From IMG/VR virus record IMGVR_UViG_2700989486_000005: 14,975 bases of DNA. One strand, 5' to 3'. The notes under the pieces were generated by a model. It saw only the letters and a list, made by a program, of their open reading frames with translations, was not told the origin of the DNA and searched no databases. This document shows, in pieces, positions 1 through 14,975 of this stretch; position 1 is the first letter of the stretch; each line of letters starts with the position of its first letter. Made by a program: the position numbers and the translations under genes. The DNA comes from a virus. Taxonomy: Duplodnaviria; Heunggongvirae; Uroviricota; Caudoviricetes.

Positions 1-1465
1 CATGCTTCTCCAGCGTCCGGAGTTCTGCCTGAAGCGTCAGCAGGGCAGCATGAGCACTGTCTTCCTGACGATCGCCCGCAGACACCTTCACGCCGGACTG
101 TTTCGGCTTTTTCAGCGTCGCTTCATAATCCTTTTTCGCCGCCGCCATCAGCGTGTTGTAATCCGCCTGCAGGATTTTCCCGTCTTTCAGTGCCTTGTTC
201 AGTTCTTCCTGACGGGCGGTATATTTCTCCAGCGGCGTCTGCAGCCGTTCGTAAGCCTTCTGCGCCTCTTCGGTATATTTCAGCCGTGACGCTTCGGTAT
301 CGCTCTGCTGCTGCGCATTTTTGTCCTGTTGAGTCTGCTGCTCAGCCTTCTTTCGGGCGGCTTCAAGCGCAAGACGGGCCTTTTCACGATCATCCCAGTA
401 ACGCGCCCGCGCTTCATCGTTAACAAAATAATCATCCTTGCGCAGATTCCAGATGTCGTCTGCTTTCTTAAACGCAGCCTCTGCCTTAATCAGCATCTCC
501 TGCGCGGTATCAGGACGACCGATATCCAGCACCGCATCCCACATGGATTTGAATGCCCGCGCAGTCCTGTCTGCCCAGGTCTCCAGCGTGCCCATGTTCT
601 CTTTCAGGCGGCGGATCTGGTCATCAAACCCTTTCGTTGCGGCCTCGTTCGCCGCCTGCAATGCCCCGGCTTCATCGCCGGAACGCTGCAACTGAGCAAC
701 ATACGCAATCTGCTCCGTCGTCACGTTATGGAACTGGCGTGCCATCGCCGTCAGCCCCGACGTCGGGTCTGTGGTCAGCTTCCCGAAGGCTTCAGCGACC
801 TTGTCCACCTCCACGCCGGATGCAGAGGAGAAACGCGCCACACTCTGGCTGATGGACGCAATCTGAGCCTCACCGCTTACCCCCGCCTTAACCAGTGCGC
901 TGAGTGACTCGCTGGTCTGGTTAAACGTCAGCCCTGCCGCCTGCCCGGCTCTGGACAGGACCAGCATACGATCTGCCGTCAGTCCCGCCTGATTGCCGGA
1001 AAGGACCAGCGTTTTGTTGAAATCGGACAGGGTTGAGTTGCCCTGATACCAGGCATACGCCAGCGCACCGGTCGCCACCGCCAGCGAGGTGGCCCCCACC
1101 ATCGGCAGGGTGATCGCACCGGCAAGCCCCCTGAACATGGGGATCATCCCGCCGAAGGAGTCCTTCACCTGCCCCCCCTGTTGCAGCAGGATCAGCCACG
1201 GACTTTGCCCGCCTGCAAGCTGCGTGGCCACGTCGGTGAACTGTGCAGGCAGCATACGCATGGCGGCTTTATACTGCCCGACGGAAATCCCCGCTTTCTG
1301 TGCAGCCAGCGCCTGTCGGCTCAGCGACTGTTCAACGACTGCCGCTGTTTTTTTCGCATCACTTTCCGTACCGGAAAAATGACGCCTGACTCTGGCCATC
1401 TGCTCGTCAAATCTGGCCGCATCCAGACTCAAATCAACGACCAGATCGCCTACCGGTTCAGCCAT
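1..1465 (-). CDS. H: Tail tape-measure protein, N-terminal ~488 codons; 3' end lies beyond the window start
   Basis: Minus-strand frame is open from the ATG at 1463-1465 to the window edge; the first residues read MAEPVGDLVVDLS, matching lambda gpH as I recall it. Position directly after G/T matches lambda order. Absent from the ORF track because its stop is outside the window. Confidence 0.88.
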   Translation of the reverse strand, partial: MAEPVGDLVVDLSLDAARFDEQMARVRRHFSGTESDAKKTAAVVEQSLSRQALAAQKAGISVGQYKAAMRMLPAQFTDVATQLAGGQSPWLILLQQGGQVKDSFGGMIPMFRGLAGAITLPMVGATSLAVATGALAYAWYQGNSTLSDFNKTLVLSGNQAGLTADRMLVLSRAGQAAGLTFNQTSESLSALVKAGVSGEAQIASISQSVARFSSASGVEVDKVAEAFGKLTTDPTSGLTAMARQFHNVTTEQIAYVAQLQRSGDEAGALQAANEAATKGFDDQIRRLKENMGTLETWADRTARAFKSMWDAVLDIGRPDTAQEMLIKAEAAFKKADDIWNLRKDDYFVNDEARARYWDDREKARLALEAARKKAEQQTQQDKNAQQQSDTEASRLKYTEEAQKAYERLQTPLEKYTARQEELNKALKDGKILQADYNTLMAAAKKDYEATLKKPKQSGVKVSAGDRQEDSAHAALLTLQAELRTLEKH

Positions 1466-1892
1466 ACCGGACTCCTCCTGCGATCCCTTCTGATACTGTC
1501 ATCAGCATTACGTCATCCTCCGTCATGTCCGCCACATCCGGGGAAGCGGGGATAACTTCATTCCCGTCCGGGCCAAAGCGGACACCTCCGGCAAGCCCTG
1601 CCGCTTTCTGCATCAGCACATCATCTTCAGGCTCTTCGTCAGCCTCGCGCCGGTTCAGCAGACTGAAATCCAGCGGATGCATATCCGGATCGCTGAAAAA
1701 CAGGCTGAGCACGGTGTACGTCAGCCCGGAAAAGTGCATATCCAGCAGAACATCATGAAAATAATGGGTACTGTAAAAGCGGTGCCAGTCGGCATACTCC
1801 GTGGATGACATCCCGGCAAGCATGGCACGCCAGTCGGGTCGCCCCATCTCACGCGCCAGTTTCAGGGCAAAACTCAGCTCACCGTCGAACAC
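1458..1892 (-). CDS. T: T segment of the tail assembly chaperone, expressed only as a G-T fusion by -1 frameshift
   Basis: 144-aa ORF in the -1 frame relative to G, overlapping G's 3' end by 19 nt and H's start; length 435 nt equals lambda T; no independent start expected. Confidence 0.85.
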   Translation of the reverse strand: MFDGELSFALKLAREMGRPDWRAMLAGMSSTEYADWHRFYSTHYFHDVLLDMHFSGLTYTVLSLFFSDPDMHPLDFSLLNRREADEEPEDDVLMQKAAGLAGGVRFGPDGNEVIPASPDVADMTEDDVMLMTVSEGIAGGVRYG

Positions 1893-2296
1893 TTTCCCGC
1901 AGAAACAGGCTCTGCGGGCCCGGCGTCCTCTGTCTGTTCAGGGGCATTATTCACCACAAACTCATACATACCAGACAGCCGGTACACCACGTTTTCAGCA
2001 TGAGAAATTGCCTCCGTGGGCCAGGTGGTAAGCACTTCCTGCTCAATCTGTTTAACGGCTTCATTCATGGACGGCATCTGCGTCTTCTGCGGATGGTTAT
2101 GCCACAGGGACATCGCCACCAGAAACGCGCCGGTTCTGATGGCGTCTTCCACAGTAAACTTCCGGTTGCTGTCTGACTCCGCCTGTTCTGCCTGCCGTTT
2201 CATCAGGGCGAGATGCTCAATGCGCTGCAGGGCTGACAGTTCAGAAAGCGTGACGGTCACACCGTTATGTTCAAATGATTCGGTTTTCTGGAACAT
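1874..2296 (-). CDS. G: Tail assembly chaperone G
   Basis: 140-aa ORF (MFQKTESFEHNGVTVTLSEL...) matching lambda gpG length and sequence as recalled; stop TGA at 1874-1876. Confidence 0.92.
   Translation of the reverse strand: MFQKTESFEHNGVTVTLSELSALQRIEHLALMKRQAEQAESDSNRKFTVEDAIRTGAFLVAMSLWHNHPQKTQMPSMNEAVKQIEQEVLTTWPTEAISHAENVVYRLSGMYEFVVNNAPEQTEDAGPAEPVSAGKCSTVS
1892..1898 (-). other. Programmed -1 ribosomal frameshift slippery heptamer G GGA AAG (G to G-T)
   Basis: Plus-strand ctttccc at 1892-1898 is the reverse complement of GGGAAAG, placed so that GGA and AAG are G-frame codons (Gly-Lys) six codons before the G stop. Same position as the lambda G/T frameshift site. Confidence 0.8.
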
Positions 2297-2311
2297 CGCT
2301 GACTCTCCGGA

Positions 2312-3052
2312 TTAACTGGCGGTGACGGTAATTTCTGCAACCGCAGCAAACTCACCATTACCGGATACAACCGGAATGTTGACCTTGCCTGCAGCAACGC
2401 CGTTCACGGTGATGGTCATACCACTGACCGACACGGTGGCTTTTGTTTTATCCGCAGACACCGCACGAAAGCTCTTGTCGGTTACGCCCTCCGGCTGGAA
2501 GGCCACGGTCAGCGTGGTGCTCTGCCCTTTCACCACCGAGGTGCTGGAAGGCGTCACGGTCATGCCGGTTGCCGCTGTTACCGTGCTGCGATCTTCTGCC
2601 ATCGACGGACGTCCCACATTGGTGACTTTCACCGTGCGGGTGATCACTTCCTTCGCCGTCACCGCCTTACCGATACTGCTGACCCAGCCACGGAACACAT
2701 CGACCGTGCCGTTCGGGAAGCGGATTTTATAGGCTCGGGTATCGCCTTCATTAAACCACGCCAGCAGCGCCTGCTGCCCCTGCTCTCCGGGCATCCACGC
2801 CAGCGTGAAGCTGGTATCTCCGGCAGATTTCTGCCCCTGCCCGGTCGCAGTCCAGTCTGCATCTTCATCATCGAGATAGCTGTCGTCATAGGACTCAGCG
2901 GTCAGTTCGCCGGGCGTCAGGTCTTTAACTTTTGCCAGACGCGACCAGTCAACGTCTGAAAGCGGATTCGCATAAGGGTCACCGCTCCCCTTATAAACCC
3001 ACAGGGTGGTCCCGGCACCTTTCACCGGCATTGTAGGATTTGGTACAGGCAT
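2312..3052 (-). CDS. V: Major tail tube protein
   Basis: Track ORF 2312..3082 is a 5'-extension; residues from [22 protein letters not shown] match lambda gpV (246 aa), so the start is set at 3052. Confidence 0.92.
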
Positions 3053-3059
3053 AGCGTCC

Positions 3060-3455
3060 TCACATTTCATAGGTAATGACATAAGTCAGATCGGCTGAAC
3101 TCCACAGGCCCGCATCATCGTCGCGCCGGTAGTCATAGCCACTGGCCACCATACTGGTGATCAAATCTGACAGTGCCGGGATATCGCTCATCACCGGATA
3201 AATCCGGGACTCCATCCACGCATCCAGCTCTGAATCCGGCACCTGAGCAGGCAGGAAAACTTCGATATGCAGCTCCGCCTGCCAGGTATCGCTGTCCAGC
3301 TCTTCGCCCGTGTATTCAGCGCCGGTGAGATAAACGGCAACTGCCGGAAAATCCGCCTCATCAAAAACAGCGGGGCGACCATCAAAAAACGTCGCCCCGG
3401 TGTCATGCTTCTCCAGTGCATCCAGTACGGCTGCACGGAGTTCAGTATGTTTCAT
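3060..3455 (-). CDS. U: Tail terminator protein
   Basis: 131-aa ORF ([28 protein letters not shown]...) with lambda gpU length and position; 4-nt overlap with Z. Confidence 0.92.
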
Positions 3456-4030
3456 CGCTTTATTACCATCCTCAGTTGATGCTGCAGCGCATAGCCCAGC
3501 TCTTTCGGAAGACGTTCACGCCGTATCCGCTCAATATTTTGTTTAAACGCCGTGGTCAGCGGCACCGCCATCGGGATTTTCACCACATCAATGGGGTAAC
3601 GGTTTTTCCCGGCCACACGCTGCATGACATGCCACCGGCCATTTTTCAGTTGCTGAATAAACGCGCCGGGAATACGACGGTTACCCACCACAAGCACGCT
3701 GCCGCCACCTTTCAGGGATGAACGCTGCCCCTTTTTACGACGCCTGCGGCGCGAAAGGACAACCCGCGCATTACCCAGCTTGATTACGGGCAAATCCCCC
3801 CGGTTAACTTTGATTCTGGCCTGCGGATTTTTGACCGTGGCCCTTTTCAGCCTGGCCCTTTCCTTTACCAGTTTCCGGCGTACCTTTGTCTCACGGGCAA
3901 CCTGTGACGCCGACTGCGATATCGCGGATGAAGCAACGCGGTTAATGGCCATTGCGGCGGCACCAGGCACCGCCGTTTTGCTGATACGGCTGAGGTTTTC
4001 AACGGCCTGCTCAAGACCTTTTATGGCCAT
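3452..4030 (-). CDS. Z: Tail completion protein
   Basis: 192-aa ORF in the lambda gpZ position with the same length; 4-nt start/stop overlap with U. Confidence 0.9.
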   Translation of the reverse strand: MAIKGLEQAVENLSRISKTAVPGAAAMAINRVASSAISQSASQVARETKVRRKLVKERARLKRATVKNPQARIKVNRGDLPVIKLGNARVVLSRRRRRKKGQRSSLKGGGSVLVVGNRRIPGAFIQQLKNGRWHVMQRVAGKNRYPIDVVKIPMAVPLTTAFKQNIERIRRERLPKELGYALQHQLRMVIKR

Positions 4031-4041
4031 ACATCCCCCTT

Positions 4042-4395
4042 TCAGCGGCGACGGTTAACGGCAGGCGGTACGCCCCGTCCAAGCCAGAGATGACAACTTC
4101 CGCCATCATCCGGCGAAACCCGATCTACCCAGAAATTTTCCTCACCGATGGTCAGCGTGTCTCCACGCCGCAGCTGCCGCACCTCATCAGTCCGGACAAA
4201 CAGGGACGGGCTGGAGCCTTCAACGCGCACGCCCTGTCCGGCATAGCTGATATTTTCAGGGTCATCAAAAACACCACGTATCACCGCACCTGACTGCTCA
4301 CCGGATGTAATGGTGGCTGACGTTCCCATGTACCCGCGTATCGTTTCATCGGCGCGGGCAATGGCAGCATCGAACAGGTTATCGAAATCAGCCAC
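4042..4395 (-). CDS. FII: Head-tail connector / head completion protein
   Basis: 117-aa ORF (MADFDNLFDAAIARADETIRGYMG...) matching lambda gpFII in length and position. Confidence 0.9.
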   Translation of the reverse strand: MADFDNLFDAAIARADETIRGYMGTSATITSGEQSGAVIRGVFDDPENISYAGQGVRVEGSSPSLFVRTDEVRQLRRGDTLTIGEENFWVDRVSPDDGGSCHLWLGRGVPPAVNRRR

Positions 4396-4406
4396 AGCGC
4401 CTCCCG

Positions 4407-4805
4407 TTATTGCATTCTGGCCAGGCCGCGCTCTGTCATTTCGGCTGCCACACCGGCAGAGACACGAAACGCCGTTCCCGGCAGCACAAATGCCACAGGT
4501 TCATCCCGCGTGGCGTGAAGTGCATCAGTATGCAGCTTCACCAGTGCCACGACCGTGACCAGTTCAGACGTATCCAGAATCACGGTATCCGGCTGCGCTG
4601 ATCCCACCTCATTTTCATGTCCGGTCAGCACATTTTCCCGGCTGAGAGGGGTGTCCTGACCGGCAGTTTCATCCGTGTCATCAAGCTCCTCTTCCAGCTC
4701 TGCCACACGGAGCGCCAGTTCTTCTTTCGTCCCCGTCAGGCTGACATCACGGTTCAGTTGTTCACCCAGCGAGCGGAGACGGGCAATCAGTTCATCTTTC
4801 GTCAT
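4407..4805 (-). CDS. FI: DNA packaging accessory protein
   Basis: Track ORF 4407..4844 is 5'-extended; residues from MTKDELIARLRSLGEQLNRDVSLTG match lambda gpFI (132 aa). Confidence 0.9.
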   Translation of the reverse strand: MTKDELIARLRSLGEQLNRDVSLTGTKEELALRVAELEEELDDTDETAGQDTPLSRENVLTGHENEVGSAQPDTVILDTSELVTVVALVKLHTDALHATRDEPVAFVLPGTAFRVSAGVAAEMTERGLARMQ

Positions 4806-4846
4806 GGACTCCTCCACAGAGAAACAATGGCCCCGAAGGGCCATGA

Positions 4847-5872
4847 TTACGCCAGTTGTACGGACACGAACTCATCAGGGTCAGCCAGCAGCATCAGCGG
4901 TGCTGACTGAATCATGGTGAACTCACGCGCCGGATCGCCGGTGGTCACCCAGTTTTTCGGGTAACGGGCAGAGGCGTTAATGCCTTCGCGCTGTGCGTCC
5001 GCATCCTGAATGCAGCCATAGGTGCGCAGACCGCGTGCCTGAGTGTTCCCCAGCACCATCGTGTTGTCCGGCAGGAAGTTCTTTTTGACGCCGTTTTCCA
5101 CGTACTGTCCGGAATACACGACGATGGCCACATCGCCATACATCCCCTTATAGGACACCGCTTTACCTAGGTCTTTCACCGCTGTCTCCAGCTCGGAATT
5201 AGAGCCACGACGGGTATCCAGCTTCTCCTTGACGGCTTTGAAGGAACGGAACAGCGCCCAGCCTTTCGGATCGAACACGATGATATTCACCACACCGCTG
5301 GCGTTCAGCGCGTAGGCTTCGATATCGTCGGTCGGGTCATACGTGGACTTGTCACGCTTGCTCCACTCCGTGCCGCCGGACTGCGTGATGTTATTCTCCT
5401 CACTGCGGCCCATATCCACCTCAACCGGATCGAAGGCTTCACCGGTCATGGTGTATTTGCCCTTAAGCACGGCAGAAACTGCCTGCATCTCTTCGACCTG
5501 AGCAATGGCCAGCTCTTCGTCACGCATGTTCTGCATGATGATGCGACGGCGGCGGTAAGCCGGGTCCGCCAGATTCTGCGGATCTTCATCCGGCAGGCGA
5601 CGCAGGGTCATCTGCGGATTCACTTCATGCTTCGGCTTGACATATCCCGGCGTAAATTCAGAGGTGGAGCCGCCACGGGAACGGATAACCTCACCGGAAA
5701 CAATCGGCGAAACGTACAGCGCCATGTTTACCAGTCCCGGAATTTGTGAGAGATAGACTTTCTCCGTGGTGAAGGGATAGCTCTCACGGAAAAAGAGACG
5801 CAGAAACAGCGGATCAAACTTAAATTTCTGCTCATTTGCCGCCAGCAGTTGGGCGGTTGTGTACATCGACAT
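4847..5872 (-). CDS. E: Major capsid protein
   Basis: Track ORF 4847..5899 is 5'-extended; residues from MSMYTTAQLLAANEQKFKFDPLFLRLFF match lambda gpE (341 aa). Confidence 0.95.
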   Translation of the reverse strand: MSMYTTAQLLAANEQKFKFDPLFLRLFFRESYPFTTEKVYLSQIPGLVNMALYVSPIVSGEVIRSRGGSTSEFTPGYVKPKHEVNPQMTLRRLPDEDPQNLADPAYRRRRIIMQNMRDEELAIAQVEEMQAVSAVLKGKYTMTGEAFDPVEVDMGRSEENNITQSGGTEWSKRDKSTYDPTDDIEAYALNASGVVNIIVFDPKGWALFRSFKAVKEKLDTRRGSNSELETAVKDLGKAVSYKGMYGDVAIVVYSGQYVENGVKKNFLPDNTMVLGNTQARGLRTYGCIQDADAQREGINASARYPKNWVTTGDPAREFTMIQSAPLMLLADPDEFVSVQLA

Positions 5873-5927
5873 AAAAAAATCCCGTAAAAAAAGCCGCACA
5901 GGCGGCCTTTAGTGATGAAGGGTAAAG

Positions 5928-6260
5928 TTAAACGATGCTGATTGCCGTTCCGGCAAACGCGGTCCGTTTTTTCGTCTCGTCGCTGGCAGCCTCCGGCCAG
6001 AGCACATCCTCATAACGGAACGTGCCGGACTTGTAGAACGTCAGCGTGGTGCTGGTCTGGTCAGCAGCAACCGCAAGAATGCCAACGGCAGCACCGTCGG
6101 TGGTGCCATCCCACGCAACCAGCTTACGGCTGGAGGTGTCCAGCATCAGCGGGGTCATTGCAGGCGCTTTCGCACTCAATCCGCCGGGCGCGGTTGCGGT
6201 ATGAGCCGGGTCACTGTTGCCCTGCGGCTGGTAATGGGTAAAGGTTTCTTTGCTCGTCAT
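5928..6260 (-). CDS. D: Capsid decoration / stabilisation protein
   Basis: Residues from [27 protein letters not shown] match lambda gpD (110 aa); the track adds two codons at the 5' end. Confidence 0.95.
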
Positions 6261-6269
6261 AAACATCCC

Positions 6270-6875
6270 TTACACTGGTGTGTTCAGCAAATCGTTAACG
6301 GCATCAGATGCCGGGTTACCTGCAGCCAGCGGTGCCGGTGCCCCCTGCATCAGACGATCCAGCGCAGTGTCACTGCGCGCCTGTGCACTCTGTGGTGCTG
6401 CGGCCAGAATGCGGCGGGCCGTTTTCACGGTCATACCGGGGGTTTCTGCCAGCACGCGTGCCTGTTCTTCGCGTCCGTGAGCCTCCTCACAGTTGAGGAT
6501 CCCCATAATGCGGCTGTTTTCTGCCGCAACCGCTGCGGTGATCTGCGCGTTCACGTCCGGCTGCGCCGCGCTGGCGTTCTCGCCCTCCGTCGCTGGCACC
6601 ACGTCAGTAACGTCAGCCTGCGAAGCAGTGGCTGAAACAGTTGTTGATTGAGTCTCTTTGGTCATTCGCCCTCCTGAGAGACGGGATTTACGTGCATCCA
6701 GTGCATCACGCATGACGGTGATCGCATCGGTGCTGTTAACAAGTTCATCAGCCAGTCCGGCATCAATGGCCTCCTGACCGCTGTACACTGCAGCCTCGGT
6801 ATCCAGCACAGCCTGCACGGACAGGCCGGTATATGCCGACACCTTCTGCGCAAACATCCGGCGGGTTGCGTCCAT
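6270..6875 (-). CDS. nu3: Scaffolding protein Nu3, nested in-frame in the 3' third of C
   Basis: In-frame ATG at 6873-6875 (MDATRRMFAQKVSAYTG...) sharing the C stop codon; corresponds to the lambda C/Nu3 nested arrangement. The internal start is inferred by homology of position, not proven from sequence. Confidence 0.7.
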   Translation of the reverse strand: MDATRRMFAQKVSAYTGLSVQAVLDTEAAVYSGQEAIDAGLADELVNSTDAITVMRDALDARKSRLSGGRMTKETQSTTVSATASQADVTDVVPATEGENASAAQPDVNAQITAAVAAENSRIMGILNCEEAHGREEQARVLAETPGMTVKTARRILAAAPQSAQARSDTALDRLMQGAPAPLAAGNPASDAVNDLLNTPV

Positions 6876-7569
6876 CCGGGACTGCAGTGTCTCCCGGACG
6901 TCATCCGGAAGATGGCTGTAGGGGTTGCCATCCACCTTATGGCTGCCGCTGTAAATCAGCGTGATTTCCACACCCTGTTTCTCCAGCGCAGCACCGTAAT
7001 TACTGTGAGCCATCATGACGCCGATGGAGCCTGTCCGGGCGGTCTGCGTGACCAGACGCCGGGAGGCGGCACTGGCAAGCAACTGACCTGCACTGCAGTT
7101 CATGTCGTTGGCAAGCGCCCATACCGGTTTTATGTCACGCACACGGGCGATGATGTCAGCGCAGTCAAATGCCCCCGCCACCATCCCGCCGGGCGTGTCC
7201 ATATCGAGCAGAATGCCGTCCACCATCGGATCGCTGGCAGCCTGTTGCAGACGGGCGATAATGCCGTTGTAACCGGTCATCCCCGAGTACGGCTGCAGCG
7301 CCCGCGTCCGGCTGACCAGCGTGCCGGACACCGGCAGCACGGCGATGCCGTTCATGACCTGATAACTGCGGGCCTGTCGTGGTCCGTCATCATCACCGGA
7401 TAATGCCAGCGTCGCGAGTGCCTCCTGGGCAGTCAGGCTGTCGCCGGACACCGCATCCGTCAGGCGGCTGATCCCAAGCTGGCCTGCAAGCGCACAAAAG
7501 AAAACCCGCGCATAGGCGGGTTCAAGCATCAGCGGCTCATTAAAGGCCATGCTGGCAATATGCGGGAGA

Positions 7570-7589
<20 letters not shown>
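6270..7589 (-). CDS. C: Capsid maturation protease/scaffold C (S49/ClpP-like), 439 aa
   Basis: Track ORF 6270..7724 is 5'-extended through an open frame; residues from (V/M)TAELRNLPHIASMAFNEPLMLEPAY match lambda gpC. Likely GTG start at 7587-7589, overlapping the 3' end of B by 20 nt as in lambda. Confidence 0.9.
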
Positions 7590-11270
<3,681 letters not shown>

Positions 11271-11296
<26 letters not shown>

Positions 11297-11816
11297 TCAG
11301 CAACCCCGGTATCAGTTCATCCAGCGCGGCTGCTTTGTTCATGGCTTTGATGATATCCCGTTTCAGGAAATCAACATGTCGGTTTTCCAGTTCCGGAAAA
11401 CGCCGCTGCACCGACAGGGGGAGCCCGTCGAGAATACTGGCAATTTCACCTGCGATCCGCGACAACACGAAAGTACAGAATGCGGTTTCCACCACTTCAG
11501 CGGAGTCTCTGGCATTCTTCAGTTCCTGTGCGTCGGCCTGCGCACGCGTAAGTCGATGGCGTTCGTACTCAATAGTTCCTGGCTGGAGATCTGCCTCGCT
11601 GGCCTGCCGCAGTTCTTCAACCTCCCGGCGCAGCTTTTCGTTCTCAATTTCAGCATCCCTTTCGGCATACCATTTTATGACGGCGGCAGAGTCATAAAGC
11701 ACCTCATTACCCTTGCCACCGCCTCGCAGAACGGGCATTCCCTGTTCCTGCCAGTTCTGAATGGTACGGATACTCGCACCGAAAATGTCAGCCAGCTGCT
11801 TTTTGTTGACTTCCAT
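11271..11816 (-). CDS. nu1: Terminase small subunit (cosB-binding)
   Basis: 181-aa ORF (MEVNKKQLADIFGASIRTIQNWQEQGMPVLRGGGKGNEVLYDSAAVIKWYAERDAEIENEKLRREVEELRQ...) matching lambda gpNu1; N-terminal winged helix-turn-helix; lies immediately next to cos. Confidence 0.95.
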
Positions 11817-12040
11817 TGTTCATTCCACGGCCAAAAACAGAGAAAGGAAACGACAAAGGCCCAAAAGTTCGTTTTCAGCACCTGTCGTTTCCTTTCTTTT
11901 CAGGGGGTATTTTAAATAAAAACATTAAGTTACGACGAAGAAGAACGGAAACGCCTTAAACCGGAAAATTTTCATAAATAGCGAAAACCCGCGAGGTCGC
12001 CGCCCCGTAACCTGTCGGATCGCCGGAAAGGACCCGCAAA
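11817..12040. other. cos region: cosB (Nu1/IHF sites), cosN with the 12-nt cohesive-end sequence, and cosQ
   Basis: Plus strand at about 11994-12005 reads aggtcgccgccc, the reverse complement of the lambda cohesive end GGGCGGCGACCT. Flanks match lambda left-end (gcgaaaacccgcgaggtcgccgccc) and right-end (cgtaacctgtcggat) sequences joined head to tail. An AT-rich IHF-type segment lies at about 11900-11950. Confidence 0.85.
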
Positions 12041-12204
12041 ATGATAATAATTATCATCTACATGTCACAACGTGCATCTACGCCATCAAACCACGTCAAA
12101 TAATCAATTATGACGCAGGTATCGTATTAATTGATCCGCATCAACTTAACGTAAAAACAACTTCAGACAATACAAATCAGCGACACTGAATACGGGGCAA
12201 CCTC

Positions 12205-12399
12205 ATGTCAACGAAGAACAGAACCCGCAGAACAACAACCCGCAACATCCGCTTTCCTAACCAAATGATTGAACAAATTAACATCGCTCTTGATCAAAAA
12301 GGGTCCGGGAATTTCTCAGCCTGGGTCATTGAAGCCTGCCGTCGGAGGCTAACGTCAGAAAAGAGAGCATATACATCAATTAAAAGTGATGAAGAATGA
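12205..12399 (+). CDS. Small basic protein with predicted ribbon-helix-helix (Arc/CopG-like) DNA-binding fold; function unknown
   Basis: 64-aa ORF with ATG start. Basic N-terminus (MSTKNRTRRTTTRNIRF), then a beta-strand / helix / GSGN turn / helix pattern (NIRFPNQMIEQINIALDQKGSGNFSAWVIEACRRRL). Same size and position as the small ORF next to cos in lambda and, as I recall, ylcI of the K-12 DLP12 prophage. Opposite strand to the late operon. Confidence 0.6.
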   Translation: MSTKNRTRRTTTRNIRFPNQMIEQINIALDQKGSGNFSAWVIEACRRRLTSEKRAYTSIKSDEE

Positions 12400-12492
12400 A
12401 CATCCCGCGTTCTTCCCTCCGAACAGGACGATATTGTAAATTCACTTAATTACGAGGGCATTGCAGTAATTGAGTTGCAGTTTTACCACTTT

Positions 12493-12530
12493 CCTGACAG
12501 TGACAGACTGCGTGTTGGCTCTGTCACAGG
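12493..12530. terminator. Candidate stem-loop between convergent ORFs (gtgacaga ... tctgtcac, ~8-bp stem, 12-nt loop)
   Basis: Inverted repeat seen in the sequence between the stop of the 64-aa ORF and the stop of the 68-aa ORF; no clear U-tract, so terminator function is uncertain. Confidence 0.3.
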
Positions 12531-12563
12531 TTAAGTAGTTTGAATGATTAGCAGTTATGGTGA

Positions 12564-12770
12564 TCAGTCAACCACCAGGGAATAATCCTTCATATTATTA
12601 TCGTGCTTCACCAACGCTGCCTCAATTGCCCTGAATGCTTCCAGAGACACCTTATGTTCTATACATGCAATTACAACATCAGGGTAACTCATAGAAATGG
12701 TGCTATTAAGCATATTTTTTACACGAATCAGATCCACGGAGGGATCATCAGCAGATTGTTCTTTATTCAT
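12564..12770 (-). CDS. Small acidic hypothetical protein (68 aa)
   Basis: ATG start with GGAG Shine-Dalgarno about 8 nt upstream on the minus strand. Same size and position as a lambda right-end ORF and, as I recall, ybcW of DLP12. No recognisable catalytic motif or transmembrane segment. Confidence 0.6.
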
Positions 12771-13055
12771 TTTGTCGCTCCATGCGCTTGCTCTTCATCT
12801 AGCGGTTAAAATATTACTTCAAATCTTTCTGTATGAAGATTTGAGCACGTTGGCCTTACATACATCTGTCGGTTGTATTTCCCTCCAGAATGCCAGCAGG
12901 ACCGCACTTTGTTACACAACCAATACTATTAATTGAAAACATTCCTAATATTTGACATAAATCATCAACAAAACACAAAGAGGTCAGACCAGATTGAAAC
13001 GATAAAAACGATAATGCAAACTACGCGCCCTCGTATCACATGGAAGGTTTTACCA

Positions 13056-13466
13056 ATGGCTCAGGTTGCCATTTTTAAAGAAATATTCGATCAAGTGCGA
13101 AAAGATTTAAACTGTGAATTGTTTTATTCTGAACTAAAACGTCACAATGTCTCACATTATATTTACTATCTAGCCACAGATAATATTCACATTGTGTTAA
13201 AAAACGATAACACTGTGTTAATAAAAGGACTTAAAAAGGTTGTAAATGTTAAATTCTCAAGAAATACGCATCTTATAGAAACGTCCTTTGATAGGTTGAA
13301 ATCAAGAGAAATCACATTTCAGCAATACAGGGAAAATCTTGCTAAAGCAGGAGTTTTCCGATGGGTTACAAATATCCACGAACATAAAAGATATTACTAT
13401 ACCTTTGATAATTCATTACTATTTACTGAGAGCATTCAGAACACTACACAAATCTTTCCACGCTAA
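13056..13466 (+). CDS. Hypothetical protein, possibly DUF1398/YbcV-like (136 aa from ATG 13056; alternative starts ATG 13014 or TTG 12933)
   Basis: The track ORF 12933..13466 starts at a TTG. ATG at 13056 ([50 protein letters not shown]...) has a GGAAGG Shine-Dalgarno-like motif about 8 nt upstream and gives 136 aa. Lies upstream of bor on the same strand in AT-rich DNA. Family assignment is from memory and unverified. Confidence 0.6.
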
Positions 13467-13756
13467 ATCATAACGTCCGGTTTCTTCCGTGTCAGCACCG
13501 GGGCGTTGGCATAATGCAATACGTGTACGCGCTAAACCCTGTGTGCATCGTTTTTAATTATTCCCGGACACTCCCGCAGAGAAGTTCCCCGTCAGGGCTG
13601 TGGACATAGTTAATCCGGGAATACAATGACGATTCATCGCACCTGACATACATTAATAAATATTAACAATATGAAATTTCAACTCATTGTTTAGGGTTTG
13701 TTTAATTTTCTACACATACGATTCTGCGAACTTCAAAAAGCATCGGGAATAACACC

Positions 13757-14050
13757 ATGAAAAAAATGCTACTCGCTACTGCGCTGGCCCTGCTTATTAC
13801 AGGATGTGCTCAACAGACGTTTACTGTTCAAAACAAACAGACAGCAGTAGCACCAAAGGAAACCATCACCCATCATTTCTTCGTTTCTGGAATTGGGCAG
13901 AAGAAAACTGTCGATGCAGCCAAAATTTGTGGCGGCGCAGAAAATGTTGTTAAAACAGAAACCCAGCAAACATTCGTAAATGGATTGCTCGGTTTTATTA
14001 CTTTAGGCATTTATACTCCGCTGGAAGCGCGTGTGTATTGCTCAAAATAA
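13757..14050 (+). CDS. bor: Bor outer-membrane lipoprotein (serum-resistance lysogenic-conversion protein)
   Basis: 97-aa ORF MKKMLLATALALLITGCAQQTFTVQNKQ... with signal peptide and lipobox L-I-T-G-C; matches lambda Bor apart from a few substitutions as recalled. Transcribed opposite to the late genes, as in lambda. Confidence 0.93.
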   Translation: MKKMLLATALALLITGCAQQTFTVQNKQTAVAPKETITHHFFVSGIGQKKTVDAAKICGGAENVVKTETQQTFVNGLLGFITLGIYTPLEARVYCSK

Positions 14051-14056
14051 TTGCAT

Positions 14057-14082
14057 GAGTTGCCCATCGATATGGTCAGCTC
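14057..14082. terminator. Imperfect hairpin between convergent bor and Rz (gagttgcccat cgat atggtcagctc)
   Basis: Inverted repeat seen immediately 3' of the bor stop and overlapping the Rz stop. I recall the equivalent lambda site as a perfect palindrome; here the stem carries mismatches or wobbles. Confidence 0.35.
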
Positions 14083-14543
14083 TATCTGCACTGCTCATTA
14101 ATATACTTCTGGGTTCCTTCCAGTTGTTTTTGCATAGTGATCAGCCTCTCTCTGAGGGTGAAATAATCCCGTTCAGCGGTGTCTGCCAGTCGGGGGGAGG
14201 CTGCATTATCCACGCCGGAGGCCGTGGTGGCTTCACGCACTGACTGACAGACTGCTTTGATGTGCAACCGACGACGACCAGCGGCAACATCATCACGCAG
14301 AGCATCATTTTCAGCTTTCGCATCAGCTAACTCCTTCGTGTATTTTGCATCGAGCGCAGCAACATCACGCTGACGCATCTGCATGTCAGTAATTGCCGCG
14401 TTCGCTAGCTTCAGTTCTCTGGCATTTTTGTCGCGCTGGGCTTTGTAGGCGATTGCGTTATCACGGTAATGATTGACCGCCCATGACAGGCTGACGATGA
14501 TGCAGATAATCAGAGCGGATATAATCGCGGTTACTCTGCTCAC
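14082..14543 (-). CDS. Rz: Spanin, inner-membrane subunit (i-spanin)
   Basis: Track ORF 14082..14555 begins at a non-ATG codon; residues from (V/M)[59 protein letters not shown] match lambda Rz (153 aa) with an N-terminal transmembrane segment. Its start overlaps the endolysin stop. Confidence 0.9.
14141..14323 (-). CDS. Rz1: Spanin, outer-membrane lipoprotein subunit (o-spanin), embedded in Rz in the +1 frame
   Basis: 60-aa [63 protein letters not shown]: lipobox VVGC and proline-rich mature region, wholly inside Rz, as in lambda. Confidence 0.87.
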
Positions 14544-14729
14544 TGTTGCCCCCACAAACAGACTTCACGCTCAATCTCACGACGAGTCATCAGGCCTTTC
14601 CATTGCTTACCGCCAGCGTATGTCCAGCGACGCAGCTGATCACATGCGCCTTTGATATCGCCCTGGTTTATTTTGCGAAGAAGCGTCGATGTTCTAAAAT
14701 TGCCAGCACCCACATTGTAAACGAATGAG
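14540..14729 (-). pseudogene. Endolysin, T4-lysozyme (GH24) type, 3' fragment only; 5' part displaced by an IS1 insertion
   Basis: Minus-strand frame encodes ...[62 protein letters not shown] ending at the Rz start. This is the conserved C-terminal region of GH24 phage lysozymes (as in P22 gp19 or DLP12 RrrD) and is unlike lambda R. The apparent ATG and the first residues MESLP of track ORF 14540..14743 are encoded by the IS1 terminal repeat, not by the lysozyme gene. Confidence 0.8.
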
Positions 14730-14975
14730 GGTAATGACTCCAACTTATTGATAGTGTTTTATGTTCAGATAATGCCCGATGACTTTGTCATGCAGCTCCA
14801 CCGATTTTGAGAACGACAGCGACTTCCGTCCCAGCCGTGCCAGGTGCTGCCTCAGATTCAGGTTATGCCGCTCAATTCGCTGCGTATATCGCTTGCTGAT
14901 TACGTGCAGCTTTCCCTTCAGGCGGGATTCATACAGCGGCCAGCCATCCGTCATCCATATCACCACGTCAAAGGG
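14730..14975 (-). mobile_element. IS1 insertion sequence, right end (IRR plus 3' part of insB); the element continues beyond the window
   Basis: Sequence from about 14730 begins GGTAATGACTCCAACTTATTGATAGTGTTTTATGTTCAGATAATGCCCGATGAC, the characteristic IS1 terminal inverted repeat, followed by the insB 3' coding region. Confidence 0.9.
14745..14975 (-). CDS. insB: IS1 transposase InsB, C-terminal 76 codons (partial; 5' end outside the window)
   Basis: Minus-strand translation ...[73 protein letters not shown] matches the IS1 InsB C-terminus; the frame stays open to the window edge. Confidence 0.88.

Follow-up and report, generated by a model that had tools for sequence, protein, structure and literature searches.

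Relation to described systems

The closest described relatives of the endolysin gene considered here, RrrD of the cryptic prophage DLP12 (PDB 4ZPU) and R of phage 21 (3HDE/3HDF), are GH24 endolysins of the signal-anchor-release (SAR) type, and both are whole enzymes. The disabling of single genes by IS elements in otherwise well-kept lambdoid prophages is also well documented. IS-disabled prophages have been described in Escherichia coli O157 Sakai, with nu1 of Sp4 as one example (Asadulghani et al. 2009, PMC2669165), and the loss of the SRRz cassette, a studied module of the DLP12 type, is described as pathoadaptive for Shigella (Leuzzi et al. 2017, cited in PMC7918800). As presented in these sources, such cases are similar to ours in that single IS hits or losses disable functions of well-kept lambdoid prophages; they differ in that another gene is hit (nu1 in Sp4) or the whole cassette is lost.

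A precedent in the very same gene is found in the APEC strain BEN2908 (NZ_LR740776.1). In that genome, a complete IS1A element lies in rrrD, both halves of the gene are kept, and the neighbours are the same as those of our locus, with essD, a porin gene and quuD upstream and rzpD and iss/bor downstream. We analysed a stretch of DNA of 14,975 bp (hereafter called the window) from a lambda-like E. coli prophage that has the same IS in the same gene and in the same orientation. BEN2908 differs from it by the position of the insertion, ~110 bp further 5' in rrrD, and by a 9-bp target duplication, TGCTTTGGT. Its insertion lies in a diverged (~95%) cassette and represents an independent event. The locus described here is an ordinary case of a prophage endolysin gene knocked out by IS1, with an element, a gene and a mechanism that are all already known, and its significance extends little beyond annotation.

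The interrupted endolysin gene

The window corresponds to the entire draft contig JXVV01000056.1 of the E. coli assembly GCA_000948475.1, and both of its ends are assembly breaks, one located in IS1 and the other inside the tape-measure gene H, whose partial product at the left edge (488 residues) is WP_044860357.1. Copies of a multicopy element such as IS1 are collapsed in short-read assembly, which is why the contig stops after 246 bp of it. As the window is a whole contig that stops in a repeat, it is impossible to read past 14975 on this record. The sequence that would complete a 768-bp IS1, reveal a target duplication and supply the 5' half of rrrD would therefore lie beyond the contig end, out of view in the source genome. 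A literature search found no papers citing JXVV00000000 or JXVV01. An origin from Shigella or from E. coli B/BL21 was rejected, given that the record is an NCBI draft of E. coli. For annotation, a contig end of this kind calls for some caution, since a feature that appears to leave a window may in fact be leaving its contig.

The features at the junction are the following (positions in the window, strand, description):

14540..14729, minus strand: 3' remnant of an rrrD-type (phage 21 R/DLP12 RrrD) GH24 SAR endolysin gene, from its identity to intact rrrD
14722..14729, plus strand: predicted copy of the duplicated target, CGAATGAG on the plus strand and CTCATTCG on the gene strand, 8 bp long if the insertion was simple
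14730..14975, minus strand: right-hand 246 bp of an IS1A-type IS1, identical at 246/246 positions to the 768-bp IS1A of E. coli BEN2908
14730..14752, plus strand: IS1 right inverted repeat (IRR), whose inward plus-strand reading is GGTAATGACTCCAACTTATTGAT, by exact string match
14745..14975, minus strand: C-terminal 76 codons of insB and its TAA stop (14745-14747), with a match to Pfam DDE_Tnp_IS1

The first-pass annotation had proposed that an IS1 terminal repeat begins at about 14730 in the frame of a GH24-type endolysin, that about 62 C-terminal lysozyme codons remain, and that the catalytic residues were in the missing N-terminal part. All three points hold. The first base of the IRR is exactly 14730, and the remaining 246 bases of the contig are those of IS1A without exception. 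Relative to the uninterrupted allele of E. coli FDAARGOS_1059, exactly 62 codons are left (S104-Q165), and the catalytic residues E35, D44 and T50 of that allele are located upstream of the break.

The IS1 end resembles the 768-bp element of the IS1A/IS1E consensus type of E. coli and Shigella in its identical terminal repeat, its 246 matching bases and its InsB C-terminus. The sequence GGTAATGACTCCAACTTATTGAT likewise bounds complete IS1 copies in four of the loci that we compared (L007, L032, L033 and L034). The InsB C-terminus matches Pfam DDE_Tnp_IS1 (PF03400) with E=1e-41 over profile positions 56-131 of 131, and the insB frame stops ~15 bp from the tip of the IRR, which is the pattern of IS1; its N-terminal part is beyond the contig end. 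With 2,051 blocks of the protein collection containing it, the exact 76-residue InsB tail is uninformative. The standard orientation of IS1 corresponds here to the minus strand, i.e. the direction of rrrD. In contrast with a complete element, the contig holds only the right-hand third of IS1, with neither the full length nor the left inverted repeat (IRL) nor the duplication in view. The 8-bp duplication that we propose below would be within the known range of 8-9 bp.

The remnant of the endolysin gene is 190 nt long; read in the direction of the gene, it has the third base of codon Tyr103, then 62 full codons and then a TGA stop. It is identical without a break to the intact rrrD of FDAARGOS_1059 and of ten other loci (L001-L010), and its translation is 100% identical to residues 104-165 of RrrD. 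The window and the empty site of FDAARGOS_1059 agree from 14540 to exactly 14729 and then part, the window continuing with GGTAATGACT… and the empty site with TAAAGAGCGC…, such that the IS1 terminus adjoins nucleotide 309 of rrrD.

The uninterrupted protein, of 165 residues, has the same sequence as PDB 4ZPU ('Lysozyme RrrD', 100% identity), and 3HDE (phage 21 lysozyme) is almost identical to it. It has a single E-X8-D-X5-T motif, formed by E35, D44 and T50, which is the canonical triad of 'true lysozymes' (PMC9239132), and a Gly/Ala-rich membrane segment typical of SAR endolysins at residues 8-25, AVAAAIGGGAIAIASVLI. It covers positions 3-125 of the Pfam Phage_lysozyme profile (PF00959). The remnant also matches this profile (E=1.6e-21), over positions 70-125 of 125 only. 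In contrast to RrrD and phage 21 R, the gene in the window is split, and what is left of it has neither the SAR domain (residues ~1-30) nor the triad, so that both hallmarks of a GH24 SAR endolysin are missing. Since it encodes residues 104-165 only and E35, D44 and T50 are absent, the remnant represents a piece of a gene rather than a functional GH24 enzyme.

Uninterrupted relatives and age of the insertion

FDAARGOS_1059 (NZ_CP066032.1) matches positions 1-14729 of the window in one piece, with 14,728/14,729 bases identical, and its rrrD is uninterrupted. The annotation of that genome lists essD, rrrD (165 residues), rzpD, bor, ybcV, ybcW, ylcI, nohD and the genes from terminase to tape-measure protein, all as intact CDS. 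This sister prophage, which is also present in STEC genomes of serogroups O103, O111 and O45, has the same gene order from H to Rz as the window; it differs in that its rrrD is intact, with essD directly upstream. Similarly, ten loci retrieved via the exact Rz protein have undisturbed genes for Q, the porin, the holin (71 residues), the lysozyme (165 residues), Rz, Bor, a DUF1398 protein, Nu1, A and so on. One of these loci shares 99.97% identity with the window across 10.6 kb.

The sole difference between the window and FDAARGOS_1059 is located at position 2735 (T in the window, A in FDAARGOS_1059) and is synonymous in the gene of the major tail protein V. Because a single synonymous difference in 14,729 bp separates the interrupted copy from an uninterrupted one, the IS1 hit appears to be recent. 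A recent IS hit had been one of the explanations offered for the lesion at the outset, and both this single SNP in 14.7 kb and the 100% match to a consensus-type IS1A speak for it.

Many near-identical genomes align with the window in two pieces, over a span shorter by ~80 bp (14,649 vs 14,729). One possibility is that this difference reflects variation of the tape-measure gene H near the left end, which might also have caused the assembly break there.

Origin of the lesion

We consider it highly probable that the lesion arose when a recent, simple transposition brought an IS1A-type IS1 into a lambda-like prophage that is otherwise intact, disrupting its rrrD-type SAR endolysin gene. The insertion would have taken place at codons 103-106 of the gene in the E. 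coli host (GCA_000948475.1). The rest of IS1, the 8-bp duplication CTCATTCG and rrrD codons 1-105 would then be found on another contig of the same assembly, with the essD pinholin gene, the porin gene and Q upstream of the 5' part of rrrD. In a simple insertion, the IRL of IS1 (GGTGATGCTGCCAACTTACTGAT) would be joined to …GCGCTCTTTACTCATTCG(T), with essD further upstream.

At the DNA level, neither junction was found in the collections searched. The exact 40-nt junction string had no match in the GTDB representative genomes, IMG/VR or the JGI metagenomes. A megablast search with a 181-nt junction in 5,426 complete E. coli genomes yielded two-piece matches only, with IS1 located elsewhere near the cassette, and the junction was absent from the phage and plasmid collections, in which matches stop at 14729. 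The DNA predicted for the second junction (duplications of 8-10 bp) likewise had no match in the GTDB representatives, IMG/VR or the JGI metagenomes.

We then predicted the protein products of the opposite junction for duplications of 7-11 bp and looked up the 7- to 10-bp versions by exact identity. The 8-bp version is a protein of 106 residues specified by rrrD nt 1-316 fused to an IS1 end, which comprises rrrD codons 1-105 and a Gly residue, followed by a stop codon supplied by IS1 (…GALYSFG, then stop). This exact product is present in the protein collection, on one ENA contig of 5,471 bp that belongs to a different dataset. The 7-, 9- and 10-bp versions were not in that collection. As judged from its sequence, the 106-residue product would be the complementary junction expected from plain transposition with an 8-bp duplication, and without an IS1 end its C-terminus would require two independent point changes. 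Both 8 and 9 bp are documented lengths for IS1 duplications (PMC12428005).

A different explanation is that the prophage is a truncated remnant generated by an IS1-mediated adjacent deletion, by an inversion or by IS1-IS1 recombination. The 5' part of rrrD, the holin gene, Q and possibly the whole early region would then have been lost or moved. The far side of IS1 is outside the contig, deletions and rearrangements are known from IS1 (PMC12428005), and truncated derivatives of the same prophage do exist, such as those of L002, L005 and L007, in which the prophage breaks off after the portal gene. However, a deletion starting from a pre-existing IS1 leaves no complementary junction, yet a product with precisely the 8-bp offset is found in a public dataset. 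In addition, the single synonymous base that distinguishes the window from an intact prophage leaves little time for secondary events, and BEN2908 shows a plain insertion in the same gene. On balance, we regard a rearrangement as unlikely.

It is very improbable that the junction is an assembly artefact in which the last 246 bp were mis-joined to a contig that truly continues with an intact rrrD. The junction is indeed close to the end of a short-read draft contig, no other genome searched has it, and the target and the IS1 end have the 5-base string AATGA in common. However, assembly k-mers are all far longer than this string. Moreover, transposition gives a join at precisely the first nucleotide of the inverted repeat, as observed here, whereas a k-mer mis-join would land there only by luck, which makes a mis-join unlikely. 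Finally, the product of the opposite junction that would match this one is present in an independent dataset.

The 67-residue reading frame

A mechanical search for open reading frames calls one at the junction, the start codon of which, as the first-pass annotation had recognized, comes from the IS1 end:

14741..14743, minus strand: TTG that opens a 67-residue reading frame (14540-14743), inside the IS1 IRR

IS1 sequence accounts for 14 nt of this frame. We found no Shine-Dalgarno sequence upstream of the TTG (14743-14741) or of an internal GTG (14713). The exact 67-residue product is not on record among 153 billion gene positions. A 57-residue version starting at the GTG is on record, only in other prophages whose lysozymes are frameshifted or cut by contig ends, and no IS1 junction was found among them. 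That the frame is expressed as a functional truncated lysozyme or a regulator is scarcely credible: it is open and matches PF00959, but with neither the triad nor a SAR or signal segment its product would have no means of cutting peptidoglycan and no route to the periplasm, quite apart from the lack of a Shine-Dalgarno sequence and of a recorded product. We therefore rejected this frame as a real gene, and its proper label is that of a pseudogene fragment, namely the 3' part of an rrrD disrupted by IS1.

Other IS1 copies in and around the cassette

Independent IS1 copies are also found in or beside the same cassette in other E. coli genomes, at positions 4138-4905 of L032, ~4610-5377 of L033 and 3001-3768 of L034. 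Their sites are the inside of rrrD, with the 9-bp duplication (BEN2908), a position shortly before essD (Combat11I9 and a large group of similar genomes) and the inside of ybcV (NCTC9104). These copies may reflect a hotspot or the mere abundance of IS1.

We give little credence to the idea that IS1 hits in and around the rrrD-type cassette are recurrent and selected, either as a quick way to disarm lysis or because they reduce the release of peptidoglycan fragments, the latter as proposed for Shigella. If it were true, bor/iss and the remaining prophage would be kept while lysis is disarmed.

Predicted consequences for lysis

Lysis of the phage 21 type combines depolarisation of the membrane by the pinholin with cutting of the wall by the SAR endolysin. 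As far as can be predicted, neither rrrD fragment can make an active muramidase. The 5' part would have the SAR segment and the triad without the C-terminal lobe, and the 3' part has neither an export signal nor the catalytic residues. Upon induction, the pinholin would still depolarise the membrane and kill the cell; the peptidoglycan would remain uncut and the virions would be trapped, unless a compatible endolysin came from another prophage resident in the cell.

This last condition deserves attention, since rrrD-like genes are present in 3,950 of the 5,426 complete E. coli genomes (73%), with up to 6 copies per genome. A co-resident prophage could therefore complement the defect. The earlier statement that a phage with this lesion should be unable to lyse normally is thus a likely reading of the gene rather than a certainty for the strain, in which complementation is possible. 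We suggest that the prophage in the source strain be scored as probably lysis-defective despite its intact structural genes.

IS1 insertions are polar, but the Q-modified RNA polymerase of lambda reads past terminators, those responsible for this polarity among them. Because of this read-through, the late genes downstream of the insertion are probably still expressed.

The remaining late region

The other features of the window are the following:

14082..14543, minus strand: Rz (i-spanin, 153 residues), intact; Pfam Phage_lysis (PF03245), E=5e-54
14141..14323, minus strand: Rz1 (o-spanin lipoprotein, 60 residues), intact, in another frame within Rz; Pfam Rz1 (PF06085), E=4e-20
13757..14050, plus strand: gene of the Bor serum-resistance lipoprotein (97 residues); Pfam Lambda_Bor, E=1e-30, annotated as bor in L011
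11994..12005, minus strand: lambda cohesive-end sequence (cos), GGGCGGCGACCT, exact match, between the lysis region and Nu1
1..11816, minus strand: genes for packaging, head and tail of the lambda type, with 99.5% identity to phage lambda records
2-1465, minus strand: first 488 codons of the tape-measure gene H, cut by the contig end, from the gene list

Apart from the endolysin gene, the late region had been described as intact, including Rz and Rz1, and our analysis agrees: the other proteins encoded in the window are identical to proteins of FDAARGOS_1059 that are not annotated as pseudogene products, with H cut by the contig end. Rz and Rz1 are both full length and conform to the pattern of two-component spanins, and the exact Rz protein is present in 3654 blocks of the protein collection. 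The GTG start codon of Rz overlaps the stop codon of rrrD (GTGA, 14540-14543), with a G-rich ribosome-binding stretch 6 nt upstream. As this stretch is within the rrrD remnant, the translation signals of Rz survive the insertion.

The organization of the window is that of a lambda late region, with cos, the gene order Nu1 (11271-11816), A, W, B, C, D, E, FI, FII, Z, U, V, G, T and H, and bor after Rz on the opposite strand, as in lambda. Phage lambda records match positions 1-14542 at 99.5% identity and stop at the R/Rz boundary. A mosaic joint is thus located at ~14542, beyond which the sequence is that of a phage 21/DLP12 RrrD-type endolysin gene and not of the lambda R transglycosylase gene. 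By its sequence, the phage is a mosaic in which an endolysin of the phage 21/DLP12 type accompanies Rz, bor and the structural and packaging module of lambda. Lastly, for ybcV (DUF1398), the mechanical reading frame has 177 codons from a TTG (12933-13466), and the RefSeq product has 136 residues (13056-13466).
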